A DNA stretch of 64,000 nucleotides from Patescibacteria group bacterium. Its GTDB lineage: Bacteria; Patescibacteriota; UBA1384; 2-12-FULL-50-11. The notes beneath the pieces were generated by a model. The model was not told where the DNA came from. It did no database searches and saw nothing but the letters and a program-made list of their open reading frames with translations. The stretch is from contig JALHMV010000003.1 in the NCBI GenBank assembly GCA_022843855.1, positions 6,560 through 70,559 of the forward strand. Reading direction: 5' to 3'. This document shows positions 2,155 to 8,524 of the stretch, piece by piece (positions within the stretch are counted from its first letter, which is position 1; each line of letters begins with the position of its first letter). Position numbers and translations under genes: made by a program.

Positions 2155-2806
2155 ATACACATACAAATCACTTGAAGGCCAGTTCCCGCGGGAGCTGACG
2201 CCCGACCACAAACGCAAGCCGTCGCCGTTCGGTAAAAGCTGGACCGAGACGCTTGAGCTCCTCCACCGGGAGATGAAGATGCTCGGCTACCGCGAAGATT
2301 CGTGCGTGATCCAGACGGCACACACGCCGTATGACGTCCGGAACGACGGAATGCTCCGGCGCGGGGCTCGTGCTCCGTCACATCCCGGCTTGGTGGTCCG
2401 CTTCGATGTGTGGGACAGGCCGAACCGCCGATACATGCCGATGAGTTTTGAGTGCGACCAATTCACATCGTTCGAAGCGAACCTGCGGGCGATCGCTGAT
2501 GCTCTCGAAGCTCTTCGCAAGGTCGACCGGTATGGCGTGAGTGGTGGTGGCAAAGCGAACGCTCACTACGAAGGCTACAAAGCTCTCCCGCCTGCCAGCG
2601 ATGGCGGTTTCACGGTCGAAACGGCAGCTCTGTTCATCGCACAGCACACGCAATACAAAGCGGCCGACATCAAGGCTTACACAGAGATCCGCGACCGGGC
2701 TTTCCGGCACGCGTCGATGAAGCTCCATCCGGACGCAGGCGGATCGCACGAGGACTTTGTCAAACTCACCGCGGCAAAGCGGGTTTTGGAGGAGAATGCC
2801 ACGTAA
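2144..2806 (+). CDS. J-domain (DnaJ-like HPD motif) protein
   Basis: C-terminal ...FRHASMKLHPDAGGSHEDFVKLTAAKRVL matches J-domain helix II-HPD-helix III. ATG 2144 sits 12 nt after GGAGG (the track start 2135 is a GTG). Confidence 0.5.
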   Translation: MTLRYTYKSLEGQFPRELTPDHKRKPSPFGKSWTETLELLHREMKMLGYREDSCVIQTAHTPYDVRNDGMLRRGARAPSHPGLVVRFDVWDRPNRRYMPMSFECDQFTSFEANLRAIADALEALRKVDRYGVSGGGKANAHYEGYKALPPASDGGFTVETAALFIAQHTQYKAADIKAYTEIRDRAFRHASMKLHPDAGGSHEDFVKLTAAKRVLEENAT

Positions 2807-4166
2807 GAAAGACCAGACAACTCAGATCAAAGGCGAGGTACTTTTCTCGAAACCGCTGCCATCGTCGAACGACGCAGAGCGATGCGTTCTCGGAGCGGTG
2901 CTGCTCGACGAGAACATAATCGCACAGGCCGCAGAGGCTCTTGAGGCGGATGATTTCTACTCGCCGTTCCATCGTCGGATATATACGGCGATGCTCTCGC
3001 TGTTCAACTCTAACCGGACCATTGACCCGATCCTGATCGCCGAGGAATTGAAGCGCGACGGCGATGCGGCAACGGTCGGCGGCATCGCGGCGATCACAAA
3101 CCTGAGCTACGGGCTTCCGCACTTCACCGACGTCGGCGAGTACCTTCAGATCATCCGGCAGAAGTCTCTACTGCGTCGGTTGATCATGTCGTGTGCGCAG
3201 ATCACAAGCGACGCTTTGGAAGAGGAAGAGGATTCGGAGCTGGTGCTCGATCGTGCCGAGCAGATGATCTTCACCCTATCGCAAGAGCGCGACCAGGGAG
3301 CGGCCGGACCGGTGCTGGCCGAGCTGCTCGCCTACGAAAGCTTGACCAAGGCTTACGAGCGGCGAAAGAGCGGCGAGATAGTTCAAGGCATCAAGACCGG
3401 CCTGCGGGATCTGGACAGCTTCCTCGCCGGCTTCAAGCAGCAGGACCTCATCATCCTCGCTGCCCGGCCATCGATGGGCAAGACGGCCGCGGCTTTGCAG
3501 TTCCTCGTCAACGCGGCTCTTGATGACCATGTCGTCTTTTTCGCGTCGCTGGAAATGAGTAAAGAGCAGGTCATCGACCGGACGATCGCTCAGATAGCTG
3601 ATATTAGCCTCTGGGGCTACGCTCACAACGTTCTAAGCGATATGCAATGGAAACAGGCCACCGATGTCTATAACACGCTCCAAGGGCGACGATTCTTCAT
3701 TGACGACACTCCTGCCATGACACCGACACAGGTGCTCGCCAAGGCCCGGAAGATCAAGACGGAGCAAAAGAAGCTCGACCTGGTCGCGGTCGACTATCTA
3801 GGCCTGATGACTTCGAGCAAACCCAGCCGCGAACGCCGCGATGACATCAGCGCCATATCTCGCGAACTGAAGGCCATCGCCAAAGAGCTCAAATGCCCGG
3901 TGATCGCCCTTTCGCAGCTCTCCCGAGCTCCCGAGAATCGCAATCCGCCGCGGCCGAAGCTTTCGGACCTGCGCGACTCCGGAGCGATCGAACAGGATGC
4001 GGACGTCGTGATCTTTCTCTATCGCCCGAGCTACTACGAGAAGAAAGAGACAGACTCGACCAATTACACGACCGAGTTCATCATCGCCAAGAACCGGAAC
4101 GGGCCGACCGACACCGTCGAGGCTATCTGGCTCAGGGACAAGGTGAAATTCGGTAACAAGAATTAG
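2796..4166 (+). CDS. dnaB: replicative DNA helicase, DnaB family
   Basis: DnaB N-terminal domain followed by a RecA-like domain with Walker A (ARPSMGKTAAALQF), DYLGLM and SQLSR motifs. ATG 2796 after GGAGGAG. Confidence 0.85.
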   Translation: MPRKKDQTTQIKGEVLFSKPLPSSNDAERCVLGAVLLDENIIAQAAEALEADDFYSPFHRRIYTAMLSLFNSNRTIDPILIAEELKRDGDAATVGGIAAITNLSYGLPHFTDVGEYLQIIRQKSLLRRLIMSCAQITSDALEEEEDSELVLDRAEQMIFTLSQERDQGAAGPVLAELLAYESLTKAYERRKSGEIVQGIKTGLRDLDSFLAGFKQQDLIILAARPSMGKTAAALQFLVNAALDDHVVFFASLEMSKEQVIDRTIAQIADISLWGYAHNVLSDMQWKQATDVYNTLQGRRFFIDDTPAMTPTQVLAKARKIKTEQKKLDLVAVDYLGLMTSSKPSRERRDDISAISRELKAIAKELKCPVIALSQLSRAPENRNPPRPKLSDLRDSGAIEQDADVVIFLYRPSYYEKKETDSTNYTTEFIIAKNRNGPTDTVEAIWLRDKVKFGNKN

Positions 4167-4182
4167 GAATGGAGGTAAATGA

Positions 4183-5184
4183 ATGTCGGCACAGTGGGTT
4201 GGATATTACTTTGACAACGACGACACGAGGATTGATGGATCGCTGCTGCTCACGCTTCTGGCGATCGCGGACCACGCGGACTCGAGCGGGCTGGCATGGC
4301 CGCGACGCAGCCTGATCGCTAAAAAGGCAAGGATCCGCGTTAGGCAGGTAACCCGGAACTTCCGAACGCTTGAAGACCTCGGTTACCTAGAAACGAAACA
4401 AGCACAAGGGCGAGGGAAACAATCGTTGTATCAACTTCTTCGCCCGGAAGTGCCGGAAACAGCCCGATCCGAAAAGGGGACACCGGTGTCCTCTTTTCCC
4501 GAGCCCGAAATAAAGGGTGTCACCGGCGACACCTTTTCTGAGGAGATAAAAGAGGTCATGGATGACACCTTTTCTGAAATAAAAGGTGTCACCGGTGACC
4601 AAGAAAAGGCGTCATGGGTGACCGAAAAAGGTGTCACCCATGACACCCCCATATATAACCATCAAGAACCGTCAATAGAACCATCACACAAACCGCGTGT
4701 GCGTGCGTCCGCGAGTGAAAAATCTTCTCCCTTTGGTGAACCGCTTAACAAACCAAAAAAGATCGGCGAGCATACGCTCGCCGAATTCAGGGAGCTGCTC
4801 GACGCAGCCGCTCCTCACTTAAAAAGCGAACATCTGGAAGATGTTCGCAAGATGTGGCTATCCGGCACGCCGCCGCTTGAGGTGATCAAGTGCTACAACG
4901 TGATGCGGATGGAATCATGGCGGACAAGCCGCGTTACGTGGCGGACCGTCGCAGCCTACCTGCCGGATTGGCAGTTCAGGCAAGAAAAGGGCATCAAGCC
5001 CGGACAGGAGCAAAACAATGGCAGAAAGAAAATTCGAACCGCAGAAGACTACGATGCAGCACTCAAGCAATGGCGGGAAGAGCGCGGACATCTTTTCGCT
5101 GGACGAGATCGAGCGAATGATGAGCTTGATCAACCGGTCACGACTCTTGCAGGGTTACTCGCTGCTCGATCCGAAGGAAGCTGA
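4183..5184 (+). CDS. putative replication initiation protein (winged-helix N-terminus; iterons inside its own coding sequence)
   Basis: N-terminal HTH/winged-helix-like segment. Lambda-O-like arrangement with a palindrome/iteron cluster inside the gene. Codon GC3 collapses after ~4980, where the next gene overlaps. Confidence 0.45.
   Translation: MSAQWVGYYFDNDDTRIDGSLLLTLLAIADHADSSGLAWPRRSLIAKKARIRVRQVTRNFRTLEDLGYLETKQAQGRGKQSLYQLLRPEVPETARSEKGTPVSSFPEPEIKGVTGDTFSEEIKEVMDDTFSEIKGVTGDQEKASWVTEKGVTHDTPIYNHQEPSIEPSHKPRVRASASEKSSPFGEPLNKPKKIGEHTLAEFRELLDAAAPHLKSEHLEDVRKMWLSGTPPLEVIKCYNVMRMESWRTSRVTWRTVAAYLPDWQFRQEKGIKPGQEQNNGRKKIRTAEDYDAALKQWREERGHLFAGRDRANDELDQPVTTLAGLLAARSEGS
4486..4660. repeat. 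cluster of GGTGTCACC / GGTGACACC-type palindromes and repeats followed by an AT-rich tract (putative origin of replication)
   Basis: Seen directly: GGACACCGGTGTCC, AAAGGGTGTCACCGGCGACACCTTTT, GACACCTTTTCTGAAATAAAAGGTGTCACCGGTGACC, AAAAGGTGTCACCCATGACACC, then ATATATAACC. Confidence 0.5.
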
Positions 5185-5506
5185 CCTGATGGCCGCGGCC
5201 TGGCTTACGGAATTCAGACGCTGGCGCATCCCCGAGTGGACCTACGAGGATCTGCTGCAGAAAACGCTCGACGCTCGGGCAAAGGATTTCTACGACGGCC
5301 GGCAGCCGAGGAGCATCGAAGCCGCTTCGCTGATGGCGATCTTCGACGGCTACTACCGCATCGAGTTCGACCACTACTGCGACGAATGCCGTGAGAACCA
5401 AGGCACGATCTACGTCGTCAATCCCGAGACGGACCGGATCGAGAAGACCTACGAGTGCAAGCACGAGACCGGATATCGGTACCCGCCGAAAGTCATCAAG
5501 CGCTAA
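5018..5506 (+). CDS. hypothetical protein with C-terminal Zn-ribbon (CDEC...CKH)
   Basis: Track ORF with GGAG upstream. High GC3 in this frame within the 166-nt overlap with the previous gene. Confidence 0.4.
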   Translation: MAERKFEPQKTTMQHSSNGGKSADIFSLDEIERMMSLINRSRLLQGYSLLDPKEADLMAAAWLTEFRRWRIPEWTYEDLLQKTLDARAKDFYDGRQPRSIEAASLMAIFDGYYRIEFDHYCDECRENQGTIYVVNPETDRIEKTYECKHETGYRYPPKVIKR

Positions 5507-6553: not shown

Positions 6554-6630
6554 CGCGAGAATGGAGCAAGGGTGGCTCGTCGGCCTCATAAGCCGGAAAT
6601 CAGGCGGTTCAACTCTGCCTCTCGCAACCA
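6554..6630 (+). tRNA. tRNA-Met (anticodon CAU), initiator-like (C1xA72 mismatch, 3' end GCAACCA with encoded CCA)
   Basis: Cloverleaf by eye: acceptor CGCGAGA/TCTCGCA, D-stem GAGC/GCTC, anticodon loop CUCAUAA, T-arm GGCGG-TTCAACT-CTGCC. Strong resemblance to the E. coli tRNA-fMet layout. Atypical 3-nt 8/9 linker and 6-nt variable loop. Coordinates +/-2. Confidence 0.55.
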
Positions 6631-6676: not shown

Positions 6677-8524
6677 ATGGCAAAAGCAAAAGCAGCAACC
6701 TCGCCGGCAAAGAAGCCGGCTTTCGAGCGCGAGATACCCGCCGAAGTGATCAACCCGGATGGCATTGAACTGACCAAGATCGACCTCTCCACCTTCGACA
6801 CGCAGCTCCGCCGACGTAACCGGCTCAGCGACGACGAAATTCTCGAGCTGGCCAACAGCATCATCGAAGCGAAGGGACTGATCCATCCGGTCGTCGTTCG
6901 TCCGAAAGGCGACCGCTACGAGCTGGTCAGCGGTGAACGGCGGTACCGGGCCGTCCAGATGCTCGGGGCAAAGACGATCGCGGCATCCGTCCGCGAACTC
7001 ACCGACGACGAGGCTCTCACGATCCAGACGATCGAGAACCTGCAACGGGTGGACGTTCATCCGCTCGACGAGGCGTTCGGCTTTGCGTCGCTGCTCAAGC
7101 AGGGAGTGGATCCCCGCGAGATAGGGCTGCGTGTCGGCAAGACGCCGTCGTTCATCGCGAAGCGTGCGTCGCTCACGAATCTGCTCCCGGACCTGATCAC
7201 CGGTATCGAGCAAAACAAGGTATCTCTGACCGAGGCGACGATGATCGCGGCCTATCCGGAGAAGATCCAGAAGAAGGCTCTCGAAAAATACGGCAAGGAC
7301 TTCTGCCAAGCCCGGTGGGTGTCGGTCGAGTCGCTCCGCGATGTGATCGACCAGGCGACCGGTGAGCTGAAAACAGCTCCGTTCAGCCTCAAGAGCGCAT
7401 CGCTCCACAAGGAAGGGCTGACCTGCGTCGAGTGCCCGAAACGCGTCGGGGCCAACCCGAACCTGTTTGGCGAGGTCGAGCTCAAAGACGACCGCTGCCT
7501 CGACACATCCTGCTACAAGGGCAAGGTCCAGAAGCATTTCGAGGCGATCCTCGACAAATGGTCGACCGAAGGGCAGAAGAAGTGGGGCTCGGATTACCAA
7601 GCCGCGAAGGTGTTTCAGTACAGCAACCCGGGCGGCTGGTTCGGGAAAGGTGCGATAGGTTCCGGCAACTACGACTCGCCCGCAAAGGATGCCAGCTATT
7701 TCCCTGAGAAGTCGGACAAGACCAAGTACTGCCCGTCCGCCGAGAACGCGCTCAAGATGGGATGGGGTGACGCGTTCCCGAAGCAAGTGAAGATCTGCCG
7801 GGATAAGGACTGCGAGATCCATTGGCCGAAGGCGGGAGCGAGTGCCAGCAAATCGCGATCGTTTAATCAGTCGCCGGAATCCCTGAATCGTCAGTTTTGG
7901 GGGAACTGCCTGGACGCCGCAGCGGTCGACATCATCACCGACCACGCCGGCAAGTGGGCAGCCAAAGAAGTCAAAGCTCTCAAGGGCCTCGAAGCCGCCG
8001 TCCGCTTCGACACCGCGGCAATGCTGGTGGCAAGTGCGGTCGAGATGGACATCGGATGGGAACGGATCAGACTGTACTTCCGCAACGAGCTCGAAGCCCT
8101 CGTCGGCTTCGATTCGGATCGCTGGATCAGCGACGTTGACGAATTCGCGTTGTGGCTGCGTGAACGACTCGAAGCGGATCAACTGCTCCGACTCGGCAAG
8201 ATCGCCGAAGCCGCGTTCGCGATGTCGTACCGCGACCTCGACTATCAGCACATTCACAACATCGCCGAGCTCGCCGGACGCAACTTCCTGACCGTGGCGG
8301 CCGGCTACGCACTTCAGACCGAGAAGCTGACCGCAGGCCAGAAAAAGAAGATCGAGGCTTGGGCTCAAAAGGTCGTAAACGGCGATCTGGTGGACGCTCC
8401 TGCCCTTTTTGGCGGCAAAGAGGCATTCGCGGTCGTCCGGGAGCGGAAAACGCTGGCAGAGCTCGATTCTCGCTACCGTAAGCAGCCCGAGAAACCCGCC
8501 GAGGGCGAGGAAGCGGCAGCATGA
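6677..8524 (+). CDS. ParB-like nuclease domain (ParB/Srx) protein with long C-terminal extension
   Basis: N-terminal GLIHPVVVRP...YELVSGERRYRA...IENLQR motifs typical of the ParB N-terminal domain. Confidence 0.7.
   Translation: MAKAKAATSPAKKPAFEREIPAEVINPDGIELTKIDLSTFDTQLRRRNRLSDDEILELANSIIEAKGLIHPVVVRPKGDRYELVSGERRYRAVQMLGAKTIAASVRELTDDEALTIQTIENLQRVDVHPLDEAFGFASLLKQGVDPREIGLRVGKTPSFIAKRASLTNLLPDLITGIEQNKVSLTEATMIAAYPEKIQKKALEKYGKDFCQARWVSVESLRDVIDQATGELKTAPFSLKSASLHKEGLTCVECPKRVGANPNLFGEVELKDDRCLDTSCYKGKVQKHFEAILDKWSTEGQKKWGSDYQAAKVFQYSNPGGWFGKGAIGSGNYDSPAKDASYFPEKSDKTKYCPSAENALKMGWGDAFPKQVKICRDKDCEIHWPKAGASASKSRSFNQSPESLNRQFWGNCLDAAAVDIITDHAGKWAAKEVKALKGLEAAVRFDTAAMLVASAVEMDIGWERIRLYFRNELEALVGFDSDRWISDVDEFALWLRERLEADQLLRLGKIAEAAFAMSYRDLDYQHIHNIAELAGRNFLTVAAGYALQTEKLTAGQKKKIEAWAQKVVNGDLVDAPALFGGKEAFAVVRERKTLAELDSRYRKQPEKPAEGEEAAA

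Follow-up and report, generated by a model that had tools for sequence, protein, structure and literature searches.

Where does replication begin in the stretch of DNA considered here (64,000 nucleotides, called the window in what follows), in which a gene at 4183-5184 appears to encode a replication initiator? An earlier note, made from the letters alone, proposed that the answer lies within that very gene, in an array of repeated palindromes adjoined by an AT-rich tract. The analysis described here leads to much the same answer. The region 4472-4713 is quite probably a phage replication origin, situated inside the initiator gene, where the linker between its two domains is encoded. What speaks for this is the array, the winged-helix character of the initiator, the constraint that acts on the DNA itself, the arrays carried by related genes, and the covariation of the array with the wing of the initiator. 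As an origin call, the design is ordinary, and a specialist would not be surprised by it. The less expected part is a tandem of the 8-nucleotide (nt) motif AACCRTCA, which adjoins the array and is shared by many otherwise dissimilar loci. The features of the gene are as follows.

4183-5184, + strand: initiator gene, 333 amino acids, recognized by its match to HTH_36, its PHROG matches, the layout of its AlphaFold2 model, and 15 homologues
4183-4452, + strand: part coding for the winged helix (amino acids 1-90)
4453-4749, + strand: part coding for the disordered linker (amino acids 91-189)
4750-5082, + strand: part coding for the helical C-terminal domain (amino acids 190-300)
4472-4497, no strand: iteron U1, AAAAGGGGACACCGGTGTCCTCTTTT, 11 of 12 dyad pairs, reading-frame phase 1
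4512-4537, no strand: iteron U2, the palindrome AAAGGGTGTCACCGGCGACACCTTTT, 10 of 12 dyad pairs, phase 2
4548-4573, no strand: iteron U3, AAAAGAGGTCATGGATGACACCTTTT, 10 of 12 dyad pairs, phase 2
4581-4606, no strand: iteron U4, AAAAGGTGTCACCGGTGACCAAGAAA, with an intact left arm and a degenerate right arm, overlapping U5
4604-4629, no strand: iteron U5, AAAAGGCGTCATGGGTGACCGAAAAA, phase 1, read as a different peptide, EKASWVTE
4626-4651, no strand: iteron U6, AAAAGGTGTCACCCATGACACCCCCA, the last iteron, with the CACCC end found in most related origins
4652-4692, + strand: AT-richer tract with three AACCRTCA motifs, a proposed element for unwinding or single-strand capture
4693-4713, no strand: GC-rich tract of alternating purines and pyrimidines, CCGCGTGTGCGTGCGTCCGCG, bordering the tandem

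According to the repeat finder, six dyad-symmetric units of about 26 bp fill 4472-4651, with a consensus of AAAAGGTGTC-N6-GACACCTTTT, a 26-bp dyad. The earlier note had counted at least five copies or inversions at 4486-4660. They are present, and there are really six units, the first of which starts 14 nt before that interval. Successive units begin 40, 36, 33, 23, and 22 nt apart. U1 to U3 are near-perfect dyads, with 10-11 of 12 arm pairs each; in U4 to U6, packed at two helical turns, the left arm is retained, but the right only in its inner part. Also present inside the array are the composite palindromes that had been remarked upon, AAAGGGTGTCACCGGCGACACCTTTT at 4512-4537 and GACACCTTTT...AAAAGGTGTCACC at 4564-4593, and the sequence that had been given as the array's end, CATATATAACC, is found after it, at 4650-4660; the functional tract reaches farther, to about 4713. 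Tandem Repeats Finder independently reported U4 to U6 as a 23-nt array and the tandem region as a second array, with a period of 10-11 nt, at 4649-4686. Between 4476 and 4638 there are six matches to GGTGWCACC, three of them exact and three with a single mismatch.

The repeats are confined to this place. On both strands of the 64 kb, the 10-nt half-site AAAAGGTGTC has four exact copies, every one inside the array, six of the seven copies with at most one mismatch lie there too, and no second cluster of half-sites exists anywhere in the window. Looser patterns occur window-wide in numbers near those expected by chance, yet their best matches (exact or with at most one mismatch) all fall in the array. 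Taken as single-stranded DNA, the array region folds strongly (z = -6.0 relative to shuffled sequences).

Since the array lies within a gene, it also reads as protein, giving the peptides KGVTGDTFSE, MDDTFSE, KGVTGD, and KGVTHDT, and the earlier note saw in these repeated peptides the mark of a constraint imposed at the level of DNA. That claim holds up on several counts. U2, U3, U4, and U6 share one reading phase and yield peptides resembling KGVTGD(T)FSE, and U1 and U5, in another phase, yield KGTPVSSF and EKASWVTE, respectively. The iteron arms make use of codons that are rare in the long open reading frames (ORFs) of the window: AAA (26% of Lys codons), GGT (13% of Gly codons), and TTT (19% of Phe codons). 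Moreover, the complementarity of the arms goes well beyond what the peptide requires. The array has 47 of 72 possible dyad pairs, as compared with 27.2 +/- 2.7 (maximum 38) when the same peptide is recoded synonymously according to the window's codon usage, and none of 20,000 such recodings attained 47.

The pattern of change between the window and its closest relative, a locus labeled L001, is to the same effect. An ungapped comparison (extending to nt 510, past which the two are out of register) gave identities in the part coding for the N-terminal domain of 0.87 at codon positions 1 and 2 and 0.56 at position 3, the usual excess of change at third positions. In the iteron array, the corresponding values are 0.71 and 0.72, and in the tract at 4652-4692, they are 0.89 and 0.93, with 90% DNA identity overall. 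Because neither the array nor the tract has the third-position excess seen in the N-domain, selection on both is acting on the DNA.

The protein encoded around the array has the character of an initiator. Its sole Pfam match is HTH_36, at amino acids 17-69 (E-value of 5.4e-7). Of the PHROG families, nine match it; each is annotated as a replication initiation protein, and four are named replication initiation O-like, including the best match, phrog_391 (1.8e-10). An AlphaFold2 model built on a ten-sequence alignment has a predicted local distance difference test score (pLDDT) of 70-89 for amino acids 1-90 and of about 30, below 50, for amino acids 91-189. The stretch predicted to be disordered contains all of the iterons (amino acids 97-157) and the tract that follows them (157-177). 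Foldseek places the N-domain among winged-helix DNA binders, with weak top matches (E-values of 0.01-0.03) to 4pql, 4pt7, and 5kbj, the latter two described as "Structure of initiator" and "Structure of Rep-DNA complex". We take all three to be RepA structures of the RepA_N family. A search of PDB sequences with the family profile found nothing better than a winged-helix match at an E-value of 0.3.

Comparison across relatives was among the checks that had been proposed. A protein search found 15 homologues of the initiator, all with HTH_36. A scan of IMG/VR with the single protein gave no match, and an alignment-based scan did retrieve loci. DNA was obtained for 7 of the 15 homologues and for 18 further loci, from GTDB genomes and IMG/VR. 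Every relative examined has, directly after the part coding for the winged helix, two to six copies of a unit of 15-26 bp, usually a dyad. The sequence of the unit varies from lineage to lineage while its position stays constant, as the following examples illustrate.

L001: unit AAAAGGGGACACCGATGTCCGCTTTT
L003, L009, and L011: unit AGTGACATNNNTGTGTCACCA
L012: unit AAAAGGTGCAGGATAATGCACCTTTT
L013: unit GGGTGAAGCCCACTTCACCC
L020: unit of the type GGGGGCTCCCCC
L025: unit CGAGTTCCGAGGGGT

Even the spacing may recur: the 36, 33, 23, and 22 nt of the window are repeated in L001 (36, 33, 23, 22) and in L012 (36, 35, 23, 23). Among relatives, the sequence of the half-sites is conserved, and the central 6 nt are variable. 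The linker is poorly conserved as protein. In three homologues (P0001-P0003), the N-domain is 64-84% identical to that of the window protein, and the iterons are variant forms of those in the window. Four others (P0004-P0007) are 60-70% identical to it in the C-domain but only 33-35% identical in the N-domain, and their iterons differ. To judge by these comparisons, the initiators are mosaics, with modular exchange as in lambdoid O genes.

What part of the N-domain might distinguish one iteron from another? The wing of the window protein has the motif QGRGKQS, coded at 4400-4440, and the presence of GRG in the wing goes together with arrays rich in AAAGG/CCTTT. Among 85 non-redundant initiator loci, 15 with a GRG wing have such an array and 4 do not, as opposed to 3 with and 63 without among those lacking GRG (Fisher p = 1.5e-10, a value that is uncorrected for phylogeny and overstates the association because the loci are not phylogenetically independent). 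The three exceptions lacking GRG have near-variants in its place, GGRS twice and GKG once. The GRG group covers distinct subfamilies: the window type, L008, L012, L014, L033, the type of Burkholderia phage phiE125, and L109. This covariation offers the best evidence in the analysis that the N-domain may read the array. By eye, a GRST-type wing appears to be paired with iterons of the form CCCCGCAG...TGCACCC.

Beyond the last iteron comes the tract that the earlier note called AT-rich. In part, this is so: over the 45 nt from 4648, the GC content is 38%, compared with 59% for the window, among the lowest 1% of 45-mers, and those that are lower lie mostly at gene boundaries. What the description misses is that the tract is not a generic AT stretch but a conserved tandem. 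Its AACCRTCA motifs begin at 4657, 4667, and 4679 (span 4657-4686), spaced 10 and 12 nt apart and in reading phases 0, 1, and 1. Starting after 4651, the order is ATATAT-AACCATCA-AG-AACCGTCA-ATAG-AACCATCA, then CACAAA, and then the GC-rich CCGCGTGTGCGTGCGTCCGCG. The last of these codes for peptides resembling RVRA(R/S)A, and similar GC-rich tracts come after the tandem in L003 and phiE125 (CGCGCGGCGTGCGCCGCG) and after another AT-rich segment in L005 and L006.

Loci that share the AACCRTCA motif have entirely different iterons. Of 24 loci retrieved by protein similarity, 16 have AACCRTCA at the same place, mostly in two to four copies (three of the loci have one), spaced 10-12 nt apart and now and then 15 or 21. 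The motif always lies on the coding strand, all three reading phases are used, and the onset is a few nucleotides past the last iteron. In the linker-coding stretch, there are 2.9 copies per kb, as compared with 0.014 per kb over the remainder of the 286 kb examined. In L005 to L008, another AT-rich segment takes the place of the tandem, and in Vibrio phage vB_VpM-pA2SJ1 (L148, 2765-2880), three CCCCCGCAGAATCTGCG iterons are followed by a repeat of the type GATCCTAACAAT instead of AACCRTCA. The layout there, iterons and then an AT tract, is otherwise the same, in a gene annotated only as a helix-turn-helix domain protein. The AACCRTCA tandem is therefore common to many lineages but not universal.

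The tandem can also be approached from the other direction, by DNA alone. The pattern AACCRTCA-N2-4-AACCRTCA matched at least 120 loci in IMG/VR, and among the matches listed, an HTH_36-like N-domain lies on the same strand no more than 1 kb upstream at 62 of 120. With a permuted control pattern, the initiator N-domain was upstream at 0 of 120 loci, again among the matches listed. When 41 other loci were inspected by eye, the tandem was seen to adjoin the last of several lineage-specific iterons, with spacings of 10 nt (9 cases), 11 nt (26), and 12 nt (21). Cultured phages are represented. The tandem lies inside the gene annotated as replication initiation O-like in Burkholderia phages phiE125, phi1026b, and phi644-2 and inside the gene annotated as primosomal protein I in Pseudomonas phages, and Arthrobacter phage Basilisk has it in the form GAACCGTCC, three times over. 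Among plasmids it is rare, with one convincing match. No paper was found that couples the term iteron with the 8-mers (their sole co-occurrence was in a primer), nor was any earlier description of the shared tandem, in a searchable literature that is incomplete. The coordinates of representative tandems, each on the coding strand, are as follows.

L001: 6475-6492
L013: 6401-6429
L015: 6402-6442
L016: 6385-6414
L018: 6425-6452
L024: 1122-1153
L027: 3991-4040
L150 (phiE125): 2502-2531

Two neighbors of the initiator gene bear on how the region compares with known origins.

2757-4166, + strand: gene for a DnaB-type replicative helicase, directly upstream of the initiator
5018-5506, + strand: conserved partner ORF that overlaps the initiator gene at its 3' end, a candidate adaptor

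The helicase gene, which the earlier note had already placed there, is full-length (NCBIfam TIGR00665, E-value of 2.8e-133; Pfam DnaB_C, 8.8e-91; DnaB N-domain, 5e-27). The partner ORF is 40-53% identical to the ORF that directly follows the initiator in L001, L005, L007, and L009. Since the homology begins at amino acids 31-34, its likely start is the ATG at 5117, giving a protein of about 130 amino acids. It matches no family in Pfam, PHROG, or NCBIfam. The C-terminus of the copy in the window is rich in Cys and His (CDEC...CKHE).

The closest parallel in general plan is the origin of phage lambda. In lambda and Stx phages, the middle of gene O contains the origin, made up of four to six inverted-repeat iterons and an AT-rich tract, and the O protein also binds AT-rich single strands (PMC7466680). 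As in lambda, the putative origin in the window occupies the middle of the initiator gene, where a flexible linker between N- and C-terminal domains is encoded; six imperfect inverted-repeat iterons come first as the gene is transcribed, with an AT-richer tract directly after them; and the N-domain and iterons appear to be swapped as one module while the C-domain is retained. The differences are also considerable. The N-domain belongs to HTH_36 rather than Phage_rep_O, the units are 26-bp dyads rather than 19 bp, and the AT tract is a conserved AACCRTCA tandem, of which a search of E. coli genomes gave no instance. The DnaB gene lies upstream, whereas lambda has a P-type loader gene downstream, and the partner ORF has no similarity to P. 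The characterization of the protein as a lambdoid O-type initiator is thus apt with regard to layout, with the origin in the protein's own gene, but not with regard to protein family: since it has no match to Pfam Phage_rep_O, it is not by sequence a member of the lambda O family, and its O-like PHROG matches are not to lambda O itself.

It is best regarded as a lambda-O-like intragenic origin that belongs with the HTH_36 O-like initiators, of which gp60 of phiE125 is a cultured example. In phiE125 (and in phi1026b and phi644-2), iterons of the type AAAGGGTGCAA, the last full dyad ending in CACCC, are followed by three copies of GAACCRTCA and a GC-rich tract, within a gene for an initiator of the same winged-helix family. 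The iteron core is GGTGCA rather than the GGTGTC of the window, and the C-domain and host phylum are different. The window shares the traits by which this class is defined here: the coding part for an HTH_36-type N-domain directly precedes the array on the same strand, and two to four AACCRTCA motifs, spaced 10-12 nt apart on the coding strand, begin very close to the last iteron. No published mapping of the phiE125 origin was found in an incomplete literature, and phiE125 is to be taken as a sequence relative rather than a characterized model.

Plasmids offer a further comparison. RepA_N initiators of Gram-positive plasmids, such as RepA of pSK41, have origin iterons inside the rep gene, between the N-terminal winged-helix domain and the C-terminal domain for a host factor. 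The window initiator has no match to Pfam RepA_N (PF06970), and its resemblance to that family is of the general winged-helix kind, at the Foldseek E-values of 0.01-0.03 given above. RK2 TrfA and F RepE are like it in combining a winged-helix initiator, double-stranded iterons, and a DNA unwinding element (DUE) with repeats, in their case 13-mers. They are unlike it in that their origins lie outside rep and the proteins have two winged-helix domains (Rep_3 type). Both bind one strand of the repeated DUE elements in a sequence-specific manner (PMC4081077, PMC10602881), and by analogy, this behavior may be the best model for the AACCRTCA tandem.

How might such an origin work? Judging by homology and by the covariation, dimers of the 333-amino-acid initiator would bind the six 26-bp iterons through the N-terminal winged helix, with the AAAGG flank probably read by the GRG-containing wing. 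A compact complex like the O-some of lambda would then form beside the tract with its three AACCRTCA motifs. Compactness is expected from the spacing of 22-23 bp, or some two turns of the helix, among the three promoter-distal iterons and the first motif of the tandem. The tract, which has the lowest GC content of any coding stretch in the region, might then melt, and the initiator might capture one strand of the repeated motif, as winged-helix plasmid Reps do. Finally, the C-domain, perhaps with the product of the partner ORF, might recruit the DnaB encoded upstream. These last steps are speculative.

What reads the tandem is a separate matter. Phages and tRNA-linked islands have it in Acidobacteriota, Proteobacteria, and Chloroflexota, and in Actinobacteria it takes the form GAACCGTCC. 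Conservation over hosts from four phyla suggests that the tandem is read either by a factor that the element itself carries or by a universal part of the replisome, and the N-domain is the only protein region common to all tandem loci. Tentatively, then, and as something possible rather than probable, the AACCRTCA tandem, with its two to four copies spaced by one turn of the helix on a fixed strand next to the last iteron, may belong universally to the origins of HTH_36 O-like initiators. A conserved surface on these proteins would recognize it, probably in single-stranded form.

Some observations weigh against the proposal that the region is an origin. At 38% GC, the tract is only moderately AT-rich, and AACCRTCA is missing from 8 of the 24 loci retrieved by protein. 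No homologue of a helicase loader was found, and the C-domain has no detectable relative of characterized function, so that recruitment of helicase by it is unsupported. P0009 has the same half-site, AAAAGGTGTC, at an N-domain identity of only 33%; specificity thus does not follow overall domain identity. If the GRG wing reads the AAAGG flank, this last case would be explained. An analysis of GC skew, which the earlier note had suggested as a check, was uninformative. The cumulative minimum for the window lies near 28 kb, there is a shallow local minimum at 5-7 kb, and all genes of the window are on one strand, so the skew neither supports nor refutes an origin at 4.5-4.7 kb.

The same skew, in failing to single out the array, is consistent with a different role for it. 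Iterons of plasmids and of lambda also have control functions, and perhaps the sites in the window serve the initiator or a repressor for control only (autoregulation, copy control, handcuffing, or exclusion), with initiation taking place elsewhere. This is unlikely. An AT-richer repeated tract invariably comes directly after the array, and the order of iterons and then DUE is typical of origins; the tandem is conserved as DNA; and the window has neither a second half-site cluster nor a promoter-like site in or near the array, a scan for promoters and terminators having given nothing above the expectation from shuffled sequences. Alternatively, the palindromes might constitute a parS-like centromere. 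A protein with ParB_N and HTH_ParB domains is encoded 2 kb downstream (6677-8524), parS sites are palindromic, and phiE125 has a ParB-like gene beside its initiator gene. However, arrays accompany the initiator in loci with no ParB in their flanks (3-8 kb requested, or to the end of the contig), the sequence of the array covaries with the initiator's own wing, and its position in the linker-coding part is fixed, all of which makes a centromere very improbable.

The gene product and its message must also be considered. The repeats might be no more than a peptide linker, KGVTGDTFSE, multiplied by in-frame duplication and without any role as DNA, for U2 to U4 are spaced by multiples of three (36 and 33 nt) and repeated peptides do result. 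Such an account can hardly be credited: U1 and U5 are in another phase and encode unrelated peptides, the dyads and rare codons exceed anything in the 20,000 recodings, third codon positions are conserved like the first and second, and the linker is predicted to be disordered and is poorly conserved. The tests of recoding and of phase refute it. As for the message, the palindromes and tandem might act in mRNA, as hairpins or as a motif affecting translation or decay, or in a transcript that primes replication. The strong single-strand fold (z = -6.0) is in keeping with this, as is the constant presence of AACCRTCA on the coding strand. But conserved half-sites around a variable central 6 nt are the pattern of a dyad bound by protein, not of a compensated stem; U4 to U6 are one-armed; and no Rfam family matches, there being only sub-threshold chance matches. 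The fixed strand of the tandem is no proof of an RNA role, because an asymmetric origin locked inside a gene would have a fixed strand as well. A function in RNA seems most unlikely.

With regard to the rest of the window, a match to terminase is present, and among deposited phage genomes, no near relative was found beyond short segments of DnaB. It looks like a highly divergent tailed phage, whose host is probably acidobacterial. Downstream of the proposed origin are a tRNA-Met (CAT) gene at 6554-6630 and then the gene for the ParB-like protein, 615 amino acids long. A single ORF of 6951 amino acids (36386-57241, + strand) is very large for a phage-like window of 64 kb.

The nearest homologues of the initiator lie not in phages but in small elements within metagenome-assembled genomes of Acidobacteria (L001, L003/L010, L005, L006, L009, and L011), and three of these elements are shown to adjoin a gene for tRNA-Arg or tRNA-Thr. 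Each carries, besides the initiator gene, an AlpA-like HTH_17 gene, the partner ORF, and a conserved ORF of 66 amino acids, and beyond these lie genes for type I restriction-modification and genes of the OLD/AAA_15 type. No helicase was found in the stretches seen. The elements may be integrative islands or phage satellites. The 60-70% identity in the C-domain, together with the absence of a helicase from the stretches seen, gave rise to the idea that the islands could be satellites that borrow the DnaB of a helper phage.

The analysis thus provides a confident and testable origin call for an uncultured phage with no close relative among deposited phage genomes. The interval 2757-5506 is a minimal candidate replicon and a possible starting point for genetic tools in a phylum poorly supplied with them, given a host that is probably acidobacterial. 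More broadly, a large and poorly annotated class of phage proteins, described as having a helix-turn-helix domain, would be initiators bearing their own origins, and the coupling of lineage-specific iterons to one shared 8-nt tandem offers a simple sequence signature by which such origins may be found. The tandem also provides a concrete substrate for the study of how initiators with a single winged helix open DNA. If it is indeed a universal element, then it would be analogous to the DnaA-trios for DnaA or to the 13-mers for TrfA and RepE, and origins could be called by sequence alone in thousands of uncultured phages.

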